Positions 8,752 to 23,590 of a stretch of DNA of 64,000 nt are shown here, piece by piece. Within the stretch, counting starts at the first letter, position 1. Every line of letters starts with the position of its first letter. Both the position numbers and the translations under genes were made by a program. The stretch lies in assembly GCF_002854065.1 (NCBI RefSeq), contig NZ_CP024147.1; one strand, 5' to 3'. The notes below the pieces were generated by a model that was not told the origin of the DNA, searched no databases, and saw only the letters and a list, made by a program, of their open reading frames with translations. This stretch comes from Escherichia coli. Lineage in GTDB: Bacteria; Pseudomonadota; Gammaproteobacteria; Enterobacterales; Enterobacteriaceae.

Positions 8752-9536
8752 GCCTGCACCTCCTGCGTCAATTGCCAGAGCGCATCAAGGAAATGTGGAA
8801 CAAAACTGCCTGGCCCCTCGCTTCTGGCGACTGCGCGTTCTCCGGCTTGTTTCATCCAGTGACAGGCAGATGCGACATTTTCCAGCGTATCGCCTGGTAA
8901 CGCACAGCAGGCAGCGACAACCGCCGATAATGCACAGCCAGTTCCTACCACTTTGGTCATTAACGGATCGCCACCGTGAATACCAATGATACGATGTCCA
9001 TCGGTAACATAATCCATCTCGCCAGTGACCACGACGATTGCGCCAGTTTCCCGTGCCAGTGTTTGTGCAGCGGGTATCGCGTTAGCTGCGGCGTCAGTGG
9101 TATCCACTCCCCGTCCACCATTAGCAATGCCAGCTAATGCCATGATTTCCGAAGCATTACCACGTATCGCTGCCGGTTTAAAAGATAAAAGTTCATGACA
9201 AAAATGGCGGCGATAATCGAGCGCACCAACCGCTACTGGATCAAGCGTCCAGGGTGTTTGAGAGCTTTTTGCTTGCTCAACGGCAGCACGCATCGCCTGA
9301 GCGCGTGGCTGCGTCAGTGTGCCAACGTTAATCAACAAGGCACTGGCGATAGCCGCAAACTGACTGGCCTCTTCGGTTTCGATAACCATCGCTGGCGATG
9401 CACCGAGCGCCAGCAAGGTATTGGCGGTAAAGGTTTGCACCACATCATTGGTCATGCAGTGCACAAGAGGGGAATGTTGGTGAAAAAGGTGTAACGCGTG
9501 CGCAGATTGCGCTGAACCCAGCAGGTCGACTTGCAT
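8748..9536 (-). CDS. thiM: Hydroxyethylthiazole kinase
   Basis: 262-aa [37 protein letters not shown]... recognised as ThiM; 4-nt overlap with thiD. Confidence 0.9.
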
Positions 9537-9544
9537 AGTTTGCT

Positions 9545-9665
9545 CCTGCCATAACGTGAAGAAGCAATGACCTGGTGGTCCGTGACTTCCCTACGCTGGC
9601 ATTATCCAGATCAGGTGATACGGGTATTTCTCAGCCTTCACGCAGAAGGGCACCCCGAGTCGTTT
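9545..9665 (-). promoter_or_regulatory. TPP riboswitch (THI element) in the thiM leader
   Basis: Minus-strand sequence ...ggggtgcccttctgcgtgaaggctgagaaatacccgtatcacctgatctggataatgccagcgtagggaag... immediately upstream of the thiM ATG matches the thiM TPP aptamer as recalled. Confidence 0.85.
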
Positions 9666-9758
9666 GGTTGCGATGATAAATCGCAGAGGAGGATGGTAAT
9701 GTCCAGCGCACGCGTTGTAAACGAGGAAAAACGGCAGTTTTACAATCGCGTTAATAAA

Positions 9759-10031
9759 TTATTTGATATATGAATCCAGCACCTTCAGAACGACATCCAG
9801 ATCTTCTTCACGTTTTAGCTCATCCCCCTGGTGAACGATGTGTTCCGTCAGATGACCTTTAATCACTTCCCGCATCAGACCGTTTACCGCGCCACGGATA
9901 GCAGCAATCTGTTGTAAAACTGCAGCGCATTCGTGCGGCTCGTCGAGCATTTTCTTGAGCGCCACGACCTGGCCCTGAATCTTACTGGCACGCGCTTTCA
10001 GTTTCTGTTTATCACGGATTGTATGAGACAT
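9759..10031 (-). CDS. rcnR: Ni/Co-responsive transcriptional repressor (CsoR/RcnR family)
   Basis: 90-aa [52 protein letters not shown]... recognised as RcnR. Confidence 0.9.
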
Positions 10032-10077
10032 GGCAACACCTGGTTAACAAGAATATGAAAAATCATAGCACTATTAA

Positions 10078-10112
10078 TCTACTGGGGGGTAGTATCAGGT
10101 ACTGGGGGGGAG
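10078..10112. promoter_or_regulatory. Two RcnR operator sites (TACT-G6/7-N-AGTA) in rcnR-rcnA divergent promoter
   Basis: tactggggggtagta at 10078-10092 and tactgggggggagta at 10098-10112; G-tract inverted repeats of the type described for RcnR binding. Confidence 0.75.
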
Positions 10113-10151
10113 TAGAATCAGATTGCCGAATTAATACTAAGAATTATTATC

Positions 10152-10976
10152 ATGACCGAATTTACAACTCTTCTTCAGCAAGGAAACGCCTGGTTCTTCA
10201 TCCCCAGCGCCATCTTACTTGGTGCGCTTCATGGCCTGGAACCAGGGCACTCAAAAACGATGATGGCGGCGTTTATCATCGCCATCAAAGGCACCATTAA
10301 ACAAGCGGTGATGCTCGGACTGGCAGCAACTATTTCGCATACCGCAGTGGTCTGGTTAATTGCCTTTGGCGGGATGGTGATCAGCAAGCGCTTTACTGCT
10401 CAATCAGCAGAACCGTGGCTCCAGCTGATTTCCGCAGTGATCATTATTAGCACCGCGTTCTGGATGTTCTGGCGTACCTGGCGCGGCGAACGCAACTGGC
10501 TGGAGAATATGCACGGGCATGATTATGAGCATCATCATCACGATCACGAACATCACCACGACCATGGACATCATCACCATCACGAACATGGCGAGTATCA
10601 GGATGCCCATGCACGAGCCCATGCCAATGACATTAAACGACGCTTTGATGGTAGAGAGGTCACCAACTGGCAAATTTTGTTATTTGGCTTAACCGGTGGC
10701 CTTATCCCCTGCCCGGCAGCAATTACCGTGCTGTTGATATGCATTCAGTTGAAAGCCCTGACACTGGGCGCAACACTGGTCGTCAGTTTCAGCATTGGCC
10801 TGGCGTTAACGCCTGTCACCGTAGGCGTTGGCGCAGCAATCAGCGTTCAGCAGGTCGCAAAACGCTGGAGCGGATTTAACACTCTCGCTAAACGCGCCCC
10901 CTATTTTTCCAGTCTGTTGATTGGCTTAGTCGGTGTGTATATGGGCGTACATGGCTTCATGGGCATAATGCGATAA
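10152..10976 (+). CDS. rcnA: Nickel/cobalt efflux membrane protein with His-rich loop
   Basis: 274-aa ORF with HGHDYEHHHHDHEHHHDHGHHHHHEHGEY histidine-rich segment and NiCoT-like transmembrane regions. Confidence 0.9.
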   Translation: MTEFTTLLQQGNAWFFIPSAILLGALHGLEPGHSKTMMAAFIIAIKGTIKQAVMLGLAATISHTAVVWLIAFGGMVISKRFTAQSAEPWLQLISAVIIISTAFWMFWRTWRGERNWLENMHGHDYEHHHHDHEHHHDHGHHHHHEHGEYQDAHARAHANDIKRRFDGREVTNWQILLFGLTGGLIPCPAAITVLLICIQLKALTLGATLVVSFSIGLALTPVTVGVGAAISVQQVAKRWSGFNTLAKRAPYFSSLLIGLVGVYMGVHGFMGIMR

Positions 10977-11194
10977 CTCAATCCTTTAGGCTTGCATGTT
11001 ATCTTCAGCCCAGGATGATTCTTAAATCAGCTATTTCCGCTGACTCTCTGCTCGCTAAGGATGCTTTTAGGGCATCCTTTCATTTACACTTTTTACGAAA
11101 TCATGGGATCACTAACAAAATATCGCTTGTCAGTTATATTGTATGGCAGGAAAGATATGCGACTGATATTACAGATCCCCAAAGTGGAGAGTTT

Positions 11195-11533
11195 ATGACC
11201 ATTAAAAATAAGATGTTGCTGGGTGCGCTTTTGCTGGTTACCAGTGCCGCCTGGGCCGCACCAGCCACCGCGGGTTCGACCAATACCTCGGGAATTTCTA
11301 AGTATGAGTTAAGCAGTTTCATTGCTGACTTTAAGCATTTCAAACCAGGCGATACCGTCCCAGAGATGTACCGCACCGATGAGTACAACATTAAGCAGTG
11401 GCAGTTACGTAACCTGCCCGCGCCTGATGCCGGGACGCACTGGACCTATATGGGTGGCGCGTACGTGTTGATCAGCGACACCGACGGTAAAATCATTAAA
11501 GCCTACGACGGTGAGATTTTTTATCATCGCTAA
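11195..11533 (+). CDS. rcnB: Periplasmic Ni/Co homeostasis protein
   Basis: Translation MTIKNKMLLGALLLVTSAAWAAPA... with signal peptide; 112 aa after trimming the 172-aa ORF. Confidence 0.85.
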   Translation: MTIKNKMLLGALLLVTSAAWAAPATAGSTNTSGISKYELSSFIADFKHFKPGDTVPEMYRTDEYNIKQWQLRNLPAPDAGTHWTYMGGAYVLISDTDGKIIKAYDGEIFYHR

Positions 11534-11558
11534 AAAAAGCCCCCTCATCATGAGGGGG
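11532..11558 (-). terminator. Stem-loop with U-run on the minus strand (candidate rho-independent terminator)
   Basis: gccccctcatcatgagggggc hairpin; on the minus strand it is followed by a T7 run. Confidence 0.5.
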
Positions 11559-11614
11559 AAATGCAGACACCTTGTTATTTTTTATTATTAGCCACTTGCT
11601 CGTCTTGCTTGTTA

Positions 11615-11761
11615 TTAGTCGTATTTCACGTTGATTAATGCGGTTGCCTCCAGTGCGCCAGATTTAATTTTATTTGTATCGTAGACGTAGTAACTGGCTG
11701 TTATCGGAATTGAAACCGTTGTATCTGTAAGTTTTGACTTTGCCGCAATTTCTTTTAAATT
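11615..11761 (-). pseudogene. yehA: 3' remnant of a fimbrial-subunit-like gene (yehA position) truncated by IS1
   Basis: Minus-strand frame reads ...NLKEIAAKSKLTDTTVSIPITASYYVYDTNKIKSGALEATALINVKYD* and runs open into the IS1 end at 11764; gene identity inferred from position next to rcnB. Confidence 0.5.
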
Positions 11762-11778
11762 TGGGTAATGACTCCAAC

Positions 11779-12282
11779 TTATTGATAGTGTTTTATGTTC
11801 AGATAATGCCCGATGACTTTGTCATGCAGCTCCACCGATTTTGAGAACGACAGCGACTTCCGTCCCAGCCGTGCCAGGTGCTGCCTCAGATTCAGGTTAT
11901 GCCGCTCAATTCGCTGCGTATATCGCTTGCTGATTACGTGCAGCTTTCCCTTCAGGCGGGATTCATACAGCGGCCAGCCATCCGTCATCCATATCACCAC
12001 GTCAAAGGGTGACAGCAGGCTCATAAGACGCCCCAGCGTCGCCATAGTGCGTTCACCGAATACGTGCGCAACAACCGTCTTCCGGAGCCTGTCATACGCG
12101 TAAAACAGCCAGCGCTGGCGCGATTTAGCCCCGACGTATCCCCACTGTTCGTCCATTTCCGCGCAGACGATGACGTCACTGCCCGGCTGTATGCGCGAGG
12201 TTACCGACTGCGGCCTGAGTTTTTTAAATGGCGGAAAATCGTGTTGAGGCCAACGCCCATAATGCGGGCGGTTGCCCGGCAT
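11779..12282 (-). CDS. insB: IS1 InsB reading frame (transposase made as InsAB' by -1 frameshift)
   Basis: 167-aa ORF ...[54 protein letters not shown]... recognised as InsB; overlaps insA 3' end. Confidence 0.9.
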
Positions 12283-12476
12283 CCAACGCCATTCATGGCC
12301 ATATCAATGATTTTCTGGTGCGTACCGGGTTGAGAAGCGGTGTAAGTGAACTGCAGTTGCCATGTTTTACGGCAGTGAGAGCAGAGATAGCGCTGATGTC
12401 CGGCAGTGCTTTTGCCGTTACGCACCACCCCGTCAGTAGCTGAACAGGAGGGACAGCTGATAGAAACAGAAGCCAC
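12201..12476 (-). CDS. insA: IS1 InsA protein
   Basis: 91-aa [46 protein letters not shown]... recognised as InsA. Confidence 0.95.
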
Positions 12477-12600
12477 TGGAGCACCTCAAAAACACCATCA
12501 TACACTAAATCAGTAAGTTGGCAGCATCACCGACTTTGTAGAGTTTCGGACGAAGGTCCGCAGAATATTCGCAGTATTAAATAAGTGTTCATTAATGCGG

Positions 12601-12642
12601 CAAAAACTAATACACCGCATCAATGTAACATCTCTGCGGTGT
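12601..12642 (-). terminator. Candidate rho-independent terminator downstream of mrp
   Basis: Inverted repeat acaccgca...tgcggtgt; on the minus strand followed by a T-rich run (rc of caaaaactaat). Confidence 0.55.
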
Positions 12643-12672
12643 ATGAAGAATAACCAGAATGGTTAATAGGCG

Positions 12673-13782
12673 TTAGACCGCGCGGAAGGAAATCTCGCCT
12701 GGAATGACTTCACCCTGCCAGTAGAGCTGAGCTGCAACGCGGTCAGCCAGCTGGCGGTAGATAGCGGTAAATTCGCTCTCCGGACGGCTGATAACCGTTG
12801 GCGTGCCTTTATCGAGATCCTCACGTAAGGAGATGTGTAACGGCATCTGCCCCAGCAGCTGTGTGTGGTATTTTTCAGCCAGTTTCTCTGCACCACCGGT
12901 ACCGAAAATCGGTTCATGGTGACCACAGTTACTGCAAATATGCACACTCATGTTCTCGACAATACCAAGCACCGGAACCTCGACTTTCTCGAACATCACA
13001 ATGCCTTTTTTCGCATCGATCAACGCGATGTCCTGCGGGGTGGTGACCACGACTGCACCAGTTACTGGAATGTTTTGCGCCAGCGTCAATTGAATGTCAC
13101 CGGTGCCTGGCGGCATATCAAGCACCAGATAGTCGAGATCCGGCCACAAGGTTTCCTGCAACATCTGCATTAACGCCTTGCTCGCCATCGGTCCACGCCA
13201 CACCATCGCATTGTCGTCAGTGACCAGATAACCAATTGAATTGGTTGCCAGGCCATGAGACATAATCGGTGCCATATGGGTACCGTCCGGCGAAGTTGGA
13301 CGCTGATTTTCTGCGCCCAGCATGGTGGGAATTGATGGGCCGTAGATATCGGCGTCCAGAATGCCGACTTTCGCCCCTTCCGCCGCCAGTGCCAGCGCCA
13401 GGTTTACCGCCGTGGAGGATTTACCCACGCCGCCTTTACCGGAACTGACCGCAATGATGTTCTTCACACCATTAATACCCGGCTGATTCTTCACGCGTTT
13501 TAAGGTGGCGATATTGTGCGACAGTTTCCAGTCGATAGCTTTCGCCCCGGTGATACGCAGCAGTTCGGCGCTACATTGCTCTTTTAACTCTTCAAACGCG
13601 CTATGCCAGACGAATGGCATAACCAGTTCCACATGCAACGTGTCGTCCATCCAGGCGACATGGTGCAACGCTTTCAGCGTGGTGAGGTTATGCTTCAGGG
13701 TTGGGTGCTGAAAATTGGCCAGTGTCCCGGCGACCATTGCGCGCAAGGCTTCTGGTGATTTGGCCTGGGATTGTTCGTTCAT
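12673..13782 (-). CDS. mrp: Fe-S cluster carrier ATPase (Mrp/ApbC/NBP35 family)
   Basis: Translation MNEQSQAKSPEALRAMVAGTLANFQHPTLKHNL... with Walker A GKGGVGKSS; 369 aa after start trimming. Confidence 0.9.
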   Translation of the reverse strand: MNEQSQAKSPEALRAMVAGTLANFQHPTLKHNLTTLKALHHVAWMDDTLHVELVMPFVWHSAFEELKEQCSAELLRITGAKAIDWKLSHNIATLKRVKNQPGINGVKNIIAVSSGKGGVGKSSTAVNLALALAAEGAKVGILDADIYGPSIPTMLGAENQRPTSPDGTHMAPIMSHGLATNSIGYLVTDDNAMVWRGPMASKALMQMLQETLWPDLDYLVLDMPPGTGDIQLTLAQNIPVTGAVVVTTPQDIALIDAKKGIVMFEKVEVPVLGIVENMSVHICSNCGHHEPIFGTGGAEKLAEKYHTQLLGQMPLHISLREDLDKGTPTVISRPESEFTAIYRQLADRVAAQLYWQGEVIPGEISFRAV

Positions 13783-13913
13783 CCCGACTCCTTTTTTGTA
13801 TAGATAAACCATCAGCTGATAGTTTACCTGAAGAATATAGAGAAGTACTTACTTAACATTTTCCCATTTGGTACTATCTAACCCCTTTTCACTATTAAGA
13901 AGTAATGCCTACT

Positions 13914-15947
13914 ATGACTCAAGTCGCGAAGAAAATTCTGGTGACGTGCGCACTGCCGTACGCTAACGGCTCAATCCACCTCGGCCATATGCTGGAGCAC
14001 ATCCAGGCTGATGTCTGGGTCCGTTACCAGCGAATGCGCGGCCACGAGGTCAACTTCATCTGCGCCGACGATGCCCACGGTACACCGATCATGCTGAAAG
14101 CTCAGCAGCTTGGTATCACCCCGGAGCAGATGATTGGCGAAATGAGTCAGGAGCATCAGACTGATTTCGCAGGCTTTAACATCAGCTATGACAACTATCA
14201 CTCGACGCACAGCGAAGAGAACCGCCAGTTGTCAGAACTTATCTACTCTCGCCTGAAAGAGAACGGTTTTATTAAAAACCGCACCATCTCTCAGCTGTAC
14301 GATCCGGAAAAAGGCATGTTCCTGCCGGACCGTTTTGTGAAAGGCACCTGCCCGAAATGTAAATCCCCGGATCAATACGGCGATAACTGCGAAGTCTGCG
14401 GCGCGACCTACAGCCCGACTGAATTGATCGAGCCGAAATCGGTGGTTTCTGGCGCTACGCCGGTAATGCGTGATTCTGAACACTTCTTCTTTGATCTGCC
14501 CTCTTTCAGCGAAATGTTGCAGGCATGGACCCGCAGCGGTGCGTTGCAGGAGCAGGTGGCAAATAAAATGCAGGAGTGGTTTGAATCCGGCCTGCAACAG
14601 TGGGATATCTCCCGCGACGCGCCATACTTTGGTTTTGAAATTCCGAACGCGCCGGGCAAATATTTCTACGTCTGGCTGGACGCACCGATTGGCTACATGG
14701 GTTCTTTCAAGAATCTGTGCGACAAGCGCGGCGACAGCGTAAGCTTCGATGAATACTGGAAGAAAGACTCCACCGCCGAGCTGTACCACTTCATCGGTAA
14801 AGATATTGTTTACTTCCACAGCCTGTTCTGGCCTGCCATGCTGGAAGGCAGCAACTTCCGCAAGCCGACCAACCTGTTTGTTCATGGCTATGTGACGGTG
14901 AACGGCGCAAAGATGTCCAAGTCTCGCGGCACCTTTATTAAAGCCAGCACCTGGCTGAATCATTTTGACGCTGACAGCCTGCGTTACTACTACACTGCGA
15001 AACTCTCTTCGCGCATTGATGATATCGATCTCAACCTGGAGGATTTCGTTCAGCGTGTGAATGCCGATATCGTGAACAAAGTGGTTAACCTGGCCTCTCG
15101 TAATGCGGGCTTTATCAACAAGCGTTTTGACGGCGTGCTGGCAAGCGAACTGGCTGACCCGCAGTTGTACAAAACCTTCACTGATGCCGCTGAAGTGATT
15201 GGTGAAGCGTGGGAAAGCCGCGAATTTGGTAAAGCAGTGCGCGAAATCATGGCGCTGGCTGATCTGGCTAACCGCTATGTCGACGAGCAGGCTCCGTGGG
15301 TGGTGGCAAAACAGGAAGGCCGCGATGCCGACCTGCAGGCAATTTGCTCAATGGGCATAAACCTGTTCCGCGTGCTGATGACTTACCTGAAGCCGGTACT
15401 GCCGAAACTGACCGAGCGCGCAGAAGCATTCCTCAATACAGAACTGACCTGGGATGGTATCCAGCAACCGCTGCTGGGCCACAAAGTGAATCCGTTCAAA
15501 GCGCTGTATAACCGCATCGATATGAAGCAGGTTGAAGCACTGGTGGAAGCATCTAAAGAAGAAGTGAAAGCAGCTGCCGCGCCAGTTACTGGCCCACTGG
15601 CAGATGATCCGATTCAGGAAACCATCACCTTTGACGACTTCGCAAAAGTTGACCTGCGCGTGGCGCTGATCGAAAACGCAGAGTTTGTTGAAGGTTCTGA
15701 CAAACTGCTGCGCCTGACACTGGATCTCGGCGGTGAAAAACGCAATGTCTTCTCCGGTATTCGTTCTGCCTACCCGGATCCGCAGGCACTGATCGGGCGT
15801 CACACCATTATGGTGGCCAACCTGGCGCCACGTAAAATGCGCTTTGGTATCTCCGAAGGCATGGTAATGGCTGCTGGTCCTGGCGGGAAAGATATCTTCC
15901 TGTTAAGCCCGGATGCTGGTGCTAAACCAGGCCATCAGGTGAAATAA
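13914..15947 (+). CDS. metG: Methionyl-tRNA synthetase
   Basis: Translation [38 protein letters not shown]... with HIGH and KMSKS motifs; 677 aa after start trimming. Confidence 0.95.
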
Positions 15948-15986: not shown

Positions 15987-16034
15987 ATAAATTCCTAAAG
16001 TTGTTTTCTTGCGATTTTGGGTAATGACTCCAAC

Positions 16035-16538
16035 TTATTGATAGTGTTTTATGTTCAGATAATGCCCGATGACTTTGTCATGCAGCTCCACCGATTTTGA
16101 GAACGACAGCGACTTCCGTCCCAGCCGTGCCAGGTGCTGCCTCAGATTCAGGTTATGCCGCTCAATTCGCTGCGTATATCGCTTGCTGATTACGTGCAGC
16201 TTTCCCTTCAGGCGGGATTCATACAGCGGCCAGCCATCCGTCATCCATATCACCACGTCAAAGGGTGACAGCAGGCTCATAAGACGCCCCAGCGTCGCCA
16301 TAGTGCGTTCACCGAATACGTGCGCAACAACCGTCTTCCGGAGACTGTCATACGCGTAAAACAGCCAGCGCTGGCGCGATTTAGCCCCGACGTATCCCCA
16401 CTGTTCGTCCATTTCCGCGCAGACGATGACGTCACTGCCCGGCTGTATGCGCGAGGTTACCGACTGCGGCCTGAGTTTTTTAAATGGCGGAAAATCGTGT
16501 TGAGGCCAACGCCCATAATGCGGGCGGTTGCCCGGCAT
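16035..16538 (-). CDS. insB: IS1 InsB reading frame (copy 2)
   Basis: 167-aa ORF identical to copy 1 except one residue (YDSLRK vs YDRLRK). Confidence 0.9.
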
Positions 16539-16732
16539 CCAACGCCATTCATGGCCATATCAATGATTTTCTGGTGCGTACCGGGTTGAGAAGCGGTGTA
16601 AGTGAACTGCAGTTGCCATGTTTTACGGCAGTGAGAGCAGAGATAGCGCTGATGTCCGGCAGTGCTTTTGCCGTTACGCACCACCCCGTCAGTAGCTGAA
16701 CAGGAGGGACAGCTGATAGAAACAGAAGCCAC
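16457..16732 (-). CDS. insA: IS1 InsA protein (copy 2)
   Basis: 91-aa ORF identical in translation to copy 1 InsA. Confidence 0.95.
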
Positions 16733-16787
16733 TGGAGCACCTCAAAAACACCATCATACACTAAATCAGTAAGTTGGCAGCATCACC

Positions 16788-21947: not shown

Positions 21948-22659
21948 GCGCCTGCACCAGCCTTTCAAACAGGCGGTCTGCGATGATCGCCGCCAGTGCC
22001 ACCAGTAACGCTCCCTGGATCACATACGCGGTATTAAATCCGCTAAGCCCGATGATGATGGGCGTACCCAGCGTGCTGGCCCCTACCGTTGAGGCGATCG
22101 TCGCCGTACCAATGTTGATAATCACCGAAGTTCGCACGCCCGCCAGAATCACCGGAGCCGCCAGCGGTAGCTCGACCTTACGCAGTCGCTGACCACGACT
22201 CATTCCCATACCCTTCGCAACTTCTGTCACGCTGGCATCAATCGCTCCCAGCCCGGCAAGTGTCGCCTGCAGGACGGGCAGCACGCCGTATAGGATCAAG
22301 GCGATAATCGCTGGTTGCAGACCAAAGCCGATCACCGGAACAGCAATCGCCAGCACCGCAACGGGCGGAAAAGTCTGCCCAACGGCGGCAATAGTTTCCA
22401 CCAGTGGGCGAAATTCCGCGCCCCACGGGCGAGTGACTGCAATTCCGGCACCAGTACCAATGATCACCGCAAACAGACTCGAAATTCCCACCAGCCAGAA
22501 ATGAGCCAGTGCCAGAGCTGCAAAACTTTCTTGCTGATAAACGGGTCGTGGCAGTTGTGGGAACAAGGCAGCAAACAGCGGCTGGCTGTAAGGCAGCCAG
22601 AAAATCAGTGCCGCAAACAAAGCAATGAGCCAGAACAGCGGATCGCGCAACATCTTCAT
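21928..22659 (-). CDS. yehW: ABC transporter permease (glycine betaine/osmoprotectant uptake system)
   Basis: 243-aa polytopic ORF with ABC permease EAA-like loop (...[24 protein letters not shown]...). Confidence 0.85.
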
Positions 22660-22663
22660 ACGC

Positions 22664-23590
22664 TTACGCCTCCACCAGCAGATCCTGAAAATGCAGCGTG
22701 CCGCAAGGCTGGCCCTGCGTGTTCACCACCGGCAGCACCTCGCATCCCCGCGCGACAAACAGAGAGAGCGCATCGCGTAGCGTCATCTCTTCTGCCAGTG
22801 CCTCACCTTCTGCTCGTTCTTCGCGACGCACGTAATCCGCCACACTACGTAACGAAAGCAGGCGCACACCCAGTTCACTACGTCCAAAAAAATGGCGGAC
22901 AAAATCATTCGCCGGACGAGTCAGCATCGTCAGCGGATTGCCCTGCTGCACCACTTCACCGTGATCCATCAATACCAGATGTTCTGCCAGCCGTAGCGCC
23001 TCATCAATATCATGAGTGACCAGCACAATAGTGCGCCCCAGCAAACGGTGAATGCGCGTCATCTCTTGTTGCAACGCGCCGCGCGTTACCGGGTCCAGTG
23101 CGCCAAAAGGTTCATCCATCAGTAAGACTTGCGGATCGGCAGCCAGTGCACGGGCCACTCCCACACGTTGCTGCTGACCACCGGAAAGCTGATGCGGATA
23201 ACGCTCACGCAAATTTGACTCCAGCCCCAGTAGCGCCATTAATTCGTCGATACGATCGTCAATCCGTGCCCGCGACCATTTTTGTAATTGCGGCACGGTA
23301 GCGATGTTTTGCGCCACGCTCCAGTGGGGGAACAGGCCAATAGATTGAATGGCATAGCCCATCCGGCGGCGCAACTCCAGTACTGGCAGCGAGCGAATTT
23401 CTTCTCCGGCAAAGCGGATCTCTCCGCTGTCATGCTCCACCAGGCGGTTAATCATTTTCAGGGTGGTGGATTTACCGGAGCCAGATGTGCCAATCAGCAC
23501 CGAAAAACTCCCTTCCTGAAAATTGAGATTGAGATCGTTAACGGCTTTTTGTGCGCCAAACAGTTTGCTGACATGGCTAAATTCAATCAT
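22664..23590 (-). CDS. yehX: ABC transporter ATP-binding protein
   Basis: 308-aa ORF with Walker [10 protein letters not shown], signature LSGGQQQRV and Walker [12 protein letters not shown]. Confidence 0.9.

Follow-up and report, generated by a model that had tools for sequence, protein, structure and literature searches.

The yehA locus and its neighbourhood

The window analysed here is a stretch of 64,000 nucleotides of Escherichia coli DNA (contig NZ_CP024147.1, assembly GCF_002854065.1). In the part of it considered below, the genes follow one another in the order thiM, rcnR, rcnA, rcnB, a short remnant of the fimbrial gene yehA (the stub), a complete IS1 element, apbC (mrp) and metG. 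The corresponding locus is intact in strain WCHEC020031 (L001), where rcnB converges with yehA and the latter is followed, in the same orientation, by yehB (usher), yehC (chaperone), yehD (fimbrial protein), yehE and apbC, beyond which metG is found in the opposite orientation. The gene yehA is the last of a minus-strand operon, yehD-yehC-yehB-yehA, in which it encodes a tip or adhesin-like subunit and yehD the major subunit; this operon is the orthologue of the Salmonella stc operon. Features of the region, in window coordinates, are listed below.

11195-11533, plus strand: rcnB, with its stop codon at 11531-11533
11530-11558, minus strand: intrinsic-terminator-like element of yehA; stem-loop at 11558-11540 (CCCCCTCATGATGAGGGGG), then C and a seven-U run at 11539-11532
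11559-11614, minus strand: yehA 3' untranslated spacer between stop codon and terminator, 56 nt, collinear with intact loci
11615-11763, minus strand: yehA pseudogene remnant; the stop codon at 11615-11617, preceded by the 48 codons of YehA residues 297-344 and by 2 nt of codon 296
11764-12531, minus strand: complete IS1, 768 bp, IS1B-type, recognized by its inverted repeats, insA/insB' and the A6C motif
about 11764-11786, minus strand: IRR, from alignment of the inverted repeats
11779-12282, minus strand: insB' frame (NF033558 match)
12201-12476, minus strand: insA (NF033558 match)
12219-12225, minus strand: A6C frameshift motif TTTAAAAAAC, from the sequence
about 12509-12531, minus strand: IRL, from alignment of the inverted repeats
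12532-12672, minus strand: retained yehE-apbC spacer, 141 bp, equal to L001 14754-14894 and starting exactly at the IS1 target GACTTTGTA
12673-13782, minus strand: apbC (mrp)
13905-15947, plus strand: metG

Identity of the yehA remnant

The minus-strand frame ending with the stop codon at 11615-11617 comprises 48 codons, translated from the window as NLKEIAAKSKLTDTTVSIPITASYYVYDTNKIKSGALEATALINVKYD*. The stub as a whole (11615-11763) corresponds to the final 149 nt of yehA, that is, to residues 297-344 of the 344-aa YehA, and does not differ at any of the 149 positions (100% identity) from the intact yehA of NZ_CP033401. The 364-bp stretch that runs from the 3' part of rcnB to the end of the stub is matched in 5,358 of the 5,426 complete E. 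coli genomes, with the annotation 'yehA: putative fimbrial-like adhesin protein'. Judged from these comparisons, the likeness to yehA is no chance resemblance.

At the protein level, the stub alone was recognized by the Pfam profile PF00419 ('Fimbrial') with 29.1 bits (cut-off 25.6 bits; E = 1.4e-6), aligning to profile positions 109-151 of 151, while the full-length protein reaches 82.4 bits across residues 184-344. The intact YehA allele also matches the NCBIfam equivalog NF011788 (YehA) with 680.6 bits against a cut-off of 395; the 48-aa stub is too short to be scored against that cut-off, and its orthology to YehA rests on the 149/149 nucleotide identity. A first-pass annotation of the window, made from its letters, had described the stub as the truncated 3' end of a fimbrial gene and had held that this reading would fall if the peptide resembled neither YehA nor any other fimbrial protein. 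Both the nucleotide identity and the PF00419 match bear the description out.

On its rcnB side the stub is collinear with 5,316 genomes at a query coverage of at least 80%, and the convergent position of rcnB is kept; on the other side, where yehB would lie, IS1 is found instead. Compared with intact yehA (b2108) in its yehDCBA operon, the stub thus shares the last 149 nt, the position next to rcnB, the 3' spacer and the terminator, but it has lost the promoter, the start codon, the signal peptide as well as the N-terminal and pilin domains, and its partners yehB, yehC and yehD are no longer there. A complete YehA reading frame with start codon and signal peptide is not present, residues 1-296 having been lost, and the stub has neither a start codon nor a ribosome-binding context. 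It is a pseudogene and not a functional member of the family. It belongs annotated as such, and RefSeq already does so: in strains 100416 and CUWW06 the stub is recorded as 'fimbrial protein, incomplete; missing N-terminus'. The G+C content of yehA is 38%, compared with 53-54% for apbC and metG.

The IS1 element at the junction

An IS1 element is expected to be about 768 bp long and to end in imperfect terminal inverted repeats of about 23 bp (GGTGATGCTGCCAACTTACTGAT / GGTAATGACTCCAACTTATTGAT). The element abutting the stub begins with GGTAATGACTCCAACTTATTGATAG at 11764, and its far end is the reverse complement of GGTGATGCTGCCAACTTACTGAT; the two ends agree at 18 of the first 23 positions. 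Its insA and insB' frames are matched by the NCBIfam model NF033558 (transpos_IS1) with 143.8 and 90 bits, and in the identical genomes RefSeq annotates an 'IS1B family transposase, programmed frameshift'. Since the end at 11764 is distal to insA, the end that adjoins the stub is the right one (IRR), as the first-pass annotation had proposed, and it belongs to a complete 768-bp element. Transcription of the transposase is directed towards the yehA remnant.

Extent of the deletion

Alignment with the intact locus delimits the loss precisely. Positions 9000-11763 of the window are collinear with L001 6601-9364, and collinearity resumes at window position 12531/12532, corresponding to L001 14753/14754. 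Relative to L001 the window lacks 5,389 bp, consisting of 886 nt of yehA, the complete genes yehB, yehC, yehD and yehE, and the 121 bp that precede the start codon of yehE, so that the outer end of IS1 is joined to DNA which in intact genomes lies 121 bp upstream of yehE. Neither the deleted 5,389 bp nor Yeh proteins beyond the stub were found anywhere in the window. The WCHEC020031 locus therefore shows what the first-pass annotation had presumed, namely that the rest of the gene and the chaperone-usher operon to which it belonged have gone, both from the locus and from the window as a whole; the loss is, however, larger than had been supposed, as it also takes in yehE and the 121 bp upstream.

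The element is not flanked by a 9-bp target-site duplication (CTTTTAAATTTG, IS1, GACTTTGTAGAG). The bases that abut it, ...TAAATTTG on one side and GACTTTGTA... on the other, are unrelated, with nothing of the 8-9 bp duplication expected of IS1. The junctions are therefore those of a deletion or of a recombination event and not of a simple insertion; the missing duplication does not exclude the identification of the element as IS1.

Retained terminator-like hairpin and flanking spacers

The 3' side of yehA has been preserved beyond the stop codon. A hairpin 56 nt past the latter, present in both the minimum free energy and the centroid folds, has a stem of 8 pairs, 6 of them G-C, and is followed by the tail CTTTTTTTAG in a minus-strand scan, which gives it the G+C-rich stem and the U-run of an intrinsic terminator. 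The U-run overlaps the stop codon of rcnB, being the complement of an A-run. Read on the plus strand, the hairpin precedes AAATGCAG, so that a good terminator would be formed only in the yehA direction. Thus, the hairpin and U-run that had been reported as retained at 11532-11558 are indeed in place, with an 8-pair stem and seven U on the minus strand. Form and position make it plausible that the hairpin acts as a terminator; the terminator scan of 11000-12800, which returned 1 site where 2.3 were expected from shuffled sequence, is by itself statistically uncompelling. A scan of 11000-13000 against Rfam at a permissive E-value yielded no known RNA family, the sole match being a sub-threshold one to Hrs1 over the terminator hairpin (23.6 bits; threshold 56.4).

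IS1-driven transcription of downstream DNA has been reported (PMC8764528). If it occurs here, read-through from the transposase gene would traverse the stub and end at the retained yehA terminator, a stop that would protect the convergent rcnB against antisense transcription. A promoter-like site on the plus strand across the junction (11734-11761; 9 of 12 positions) was dismissed, given that 3 such sites were observed where 2.0 were expected.

The spacer retained on the apbC side is likewise structured. The minus strand of 12532-12680 folds with -38.8 kcal/mol (z = -3.6 relative to shuffled sequence); it contains a CGGAC-GAAG-GTCCG hairpin at 12548-12561 and a long hairpin at about 12590-12640 that is followed by a U-rich stretch. 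These hairpins, located 3' of the apbC stop codon, probably represent the terminator region of apbC. No Rfam match was obtained for the hairpin region 12532-12680.

Distribution among E. coli genomes

In order to describe the distribution of the deletion, queries spanning the two junctions were compared with 5,426 complete E. coli genomes. Both junctions were found in two of them only, those of strain 100416, isolated from human stool in the Gambia and 100% identical to the window, and strain CUWW06, isolated from wastewater in Thailand. DNA of yehC-yehD is present in 5,320 of the 5,426 genomes. In a survey of chaperone-usher fimbriae, Yeh was described as core-associated, intact in 92% of the strains, and cryptic but functional, its Salmonella counterpart being Stc (Wurpel et al. 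2013, PMC3559732). The lineage of 100416 and CUWW06 would accordingly be unable to make fimbriae that about 98% of complete E. coli genomes encode. Our literature search found no published description of this particular deletion.

The closest relative in terms of backbone is strain SY3626, which is 99.8% identical over 24 kb (window 17000-41000) and has an intact yehABCDE cluster. Around rcnA-yehA and apbC-metG its identity to the window is 94.7-98.4%, a drop that suggests a recombination mosaic. Considered as a proxy for the ancestor from which the yeh genes were recently lost, SY3626 provides weak evidence, being mosaic around yeh itself.

Other IS1 events at the yeh locus

IS1 has entered this locus on other occasions. 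Insertions in the 3' half of yehA in the same orientation occur at no fewer than seven other sites, within about 540 bp of the window junction, in about 80 of the 5,426 complete genomes; measured from that junction into the gene, they lie at 56, 66, 82, 219, 234, 376/377 and 387 bp. Strain L73 (L004), the one example inspected, carries a simple insertion in yehA with yehB in place. IS1 within yehA has also been mentioned for ST131 (PMC8764528). The window shares with these insertions the gene and the element, and with those in the approximately 80 genomes also the orientation; however, they split yehA and leave yehB-yehE where they were, whereas the window has lost the upstream operon entirely.

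Two further strains bear on the apbC side of the deletion. In strain VL7S7 an IS1A in the opposite orientation (L005 7256-8023) is flanked by a 9-bp duplication of GACTTTGTA, equal to window positions 12532-12540; the strain keeps the whole yehABCDE cluster, although its yehA contains an internal stop and is recorded as a pseudogene. This insertion is independent of the IS1 in the window, the same target having been hit twice in unrelated lineages. In strain LR-24 (NZ_AP027494) an IS1X2 (L008 5098-5865) bounds a deletion of 1,941 bp that comprises most of yehC, yehD, yehE and 167 bp upstream. That element sits 95 bp from the stop codon of apbC, which is 46 bp nearer to this gene than the IS1 in the window, and yehB of LR-24 has an internal stop. 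LR-24 and the window both have an IS1 next to the 3' end of apbC, a deletion reaching into the yeh operon and a fimbrial stub annotated as 'missing N-terminus'; the IS1 variant and its orientation differ, and the inner end in LR-24 lies in yehC, giving a loss of 1.9 kb as compared with 5.4 kb here. The LR-24 deletion is independent of the event in the window.

Among the matches listed, an IS1A lies inside yehE, which encodes a DUF2574 family protein, or next to it in all of the laboratory derivatives of E. coli B (including BL21, REL606 and C41/C43) and in E. coli C. This element lies within a few hundred bp of the right junction of the window and represents a separate event.

Origin of the deletion

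Taken together, the data make it very probable that the stub is the non-functional remnant of yehA left behind when 5,389 bp were deleted in an IS1-associated event, which removed yehA codons 1-295, yehB-yehE and the 121 bp upstream of yehE. IS1 is able to generate adjacent deletions by intramolecular replicative transposition. In the scheme that we favour, the first step would have been the insertion of an IS1 into the yehE-apbC spacer, at the 9-bp target GACTTTGTA; the IRR of this element would then have attacked a site in the AT-rich 3' part of yehA by intramolecular replicative transposition, and the intervening DNA would have been excised, leaving one IS1 and no target duplication. The locus shares all of the features of such adjacent deletions, namely a single intact IS1 at the junction, no 9-bp duplication and a new junction in AT-rich DNA, and there is no structural difference from them; in addition, one of the junctions coincides with a proven IS1 target, and the mechanism proposed is deduced from this structure. 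Because the duplication in VL7S7 marks the same boundary, the right junction of the window looks like the junction of the original insertion, at a preferred target. Insertion followed by adjacent deletion is the most economical path and most likely the one taken, and the order of the two events is presumed accordingly. The expected intermediate, an IS1 in the window orientation at GACTTTGTA next to an intact yeh operon, was not detected by junction-spanning queries among the 5,426 complete genomes; apart from the carriers of the deletion, VL7S7 alone has an IS1 at this target, in the opposite orientation.

The same end state would be reached by RecA-dependent homologous recombination if one IS1 had entered yehA at nt 886/887 and a second, in direct orientation, the yehE-apbC spacer; this would account for the missing duplication equally well. 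Precursors of both types exist: in about 80 genomes the 3' half of yehA contains an IS1 oriented as in the window, and about 80 have one in or near yehE or in the yehE-apbC spacer. The lineage is also rich in IS1, with at least 40 IS1-matching pieces per record in both carriers, and the window itself has a second copy 3.5 kb away. This route, however, would take two independent insertions and a recombination, compared with one insertion and one transposition for an adjacent deletion, and among the 5,426 complete genomes there is none in which an IS1 occupies precisely the yehA junction while the remainder of yehA is kept. Moreover, LR-24 shares the anchor near apbC but has another inner end point, which is explained more simply by adjacent deletions of variable length. 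We therefore regard recombination between two copies as possible but rather unlikely.

That the junctions result from reads collapsed across IS1 copies during assembly, the yeh operon being really present, might be imagined, given that IS1 is highly repeated in the genome and a nearly identical copy lies 3.5 kb away, but it is most improbable: two complete assemblies, of strains from different continents, show exactly the same two junctions, none of the 5.4-kb segment was found in the window, and LR-24 has a comparable, independent deletion.

The idea that the stub is still expressed, to give either a short functional peptide or a fusion of IS1 and YehA, deserves practically no credence. The stub frame does remain open for 21 codons inside IS1, and IS1 transcription is directed towards it, but those 21 codons include no start codon and in the stub itself ATG, GTG or TTG occurs in frame only once, as a GTG in position 45 of the 48 codons, four codons ahead of the stop, in agreement with the first-pass annotation, according to which the frame runs into the IS1 repeat at 11764 without a start codon. 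The insB stop at 11779 is in another frame (offset 2 mod 3), and the ORF list of the window has no entry of at least 30 aa in the stub frame. A fusion protein is excluded by the different frames and the lack of a start codon, and for the same reasons the stub is in all likelihood untranslated. In chaperone-usher systems, a fragment of an Ig-like pilin that lacks a signal peptide cannot be exported or assembled, and this would hold for the 48 residues encoded here.

Recurrence of IS1 events at yeh

Every component of the locus is ordinary and of a textbook type, and public records already annotate it in this way; in that sense it is known. The locus provides a clean worked example of IS1-driven reductive evolution. 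The same 9-bp target was hit independently in two lineages, at least eight IS1 sites fall in the 3' half of yehA, all of the E. coli B and C laboratory strains listed have an IS1 inside yehE or close to it, and deletions anchored by IS1 have arisen independently at least twice, with different lengths. For these reasons yeh might be a true hot spot of convergent IS1-driven inactivation, reflecting selection against a costly cryptic fimbria beyond the preference of IS1 for AT-rich targets, a reading that we consider doubtful and put forward tentatively. MG1655 has 12 chaperone-usher operons, yehABCD among them, and growth is reported to improve when any one of them is deleted (PMC8174762). Were the locus such a hot spot, the limits of the deletions would be set on one side by apbC and metG, which are essential, and on the other by the yehA terminator, through its shielding of rcnB. 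Recurrent IS1 events at yeh may be relevant to the choice of targets by insertion sequences or to the fitness cost of cryptic fimbriae.

Other IS1 copies in the vicinity

The second IS1 copy of the window (16020-16787) has the same orientation as the first, differs from it by 1 nt and is located 72 bp past the metG stop codon. It is likewise devoid of a target-site duplication (GCGATTTTG / CTGCTGACG), and its far side adjoins a yehQ (SWIM zinc-finger) gene without the N-terminus. Approximately 8-10 kb are missing at this position in comparison with other strains, including molR/yehH-I, yehK, yehL, yehM, yehP and the 5' part of yehQ. The apbC-metG segment thus lies between two IS1 copies in direct orientation, and a deletion adjoins each of them on the side facing away from the segment.

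In SY3626 (L007), IS1 copies were found at 9576-10273 and 22131-22828, one truncating a molR-like WGR-domain gene beside metG and the other overlapping the 3' end of rcnR; in the same strain yehM is split by IS421.
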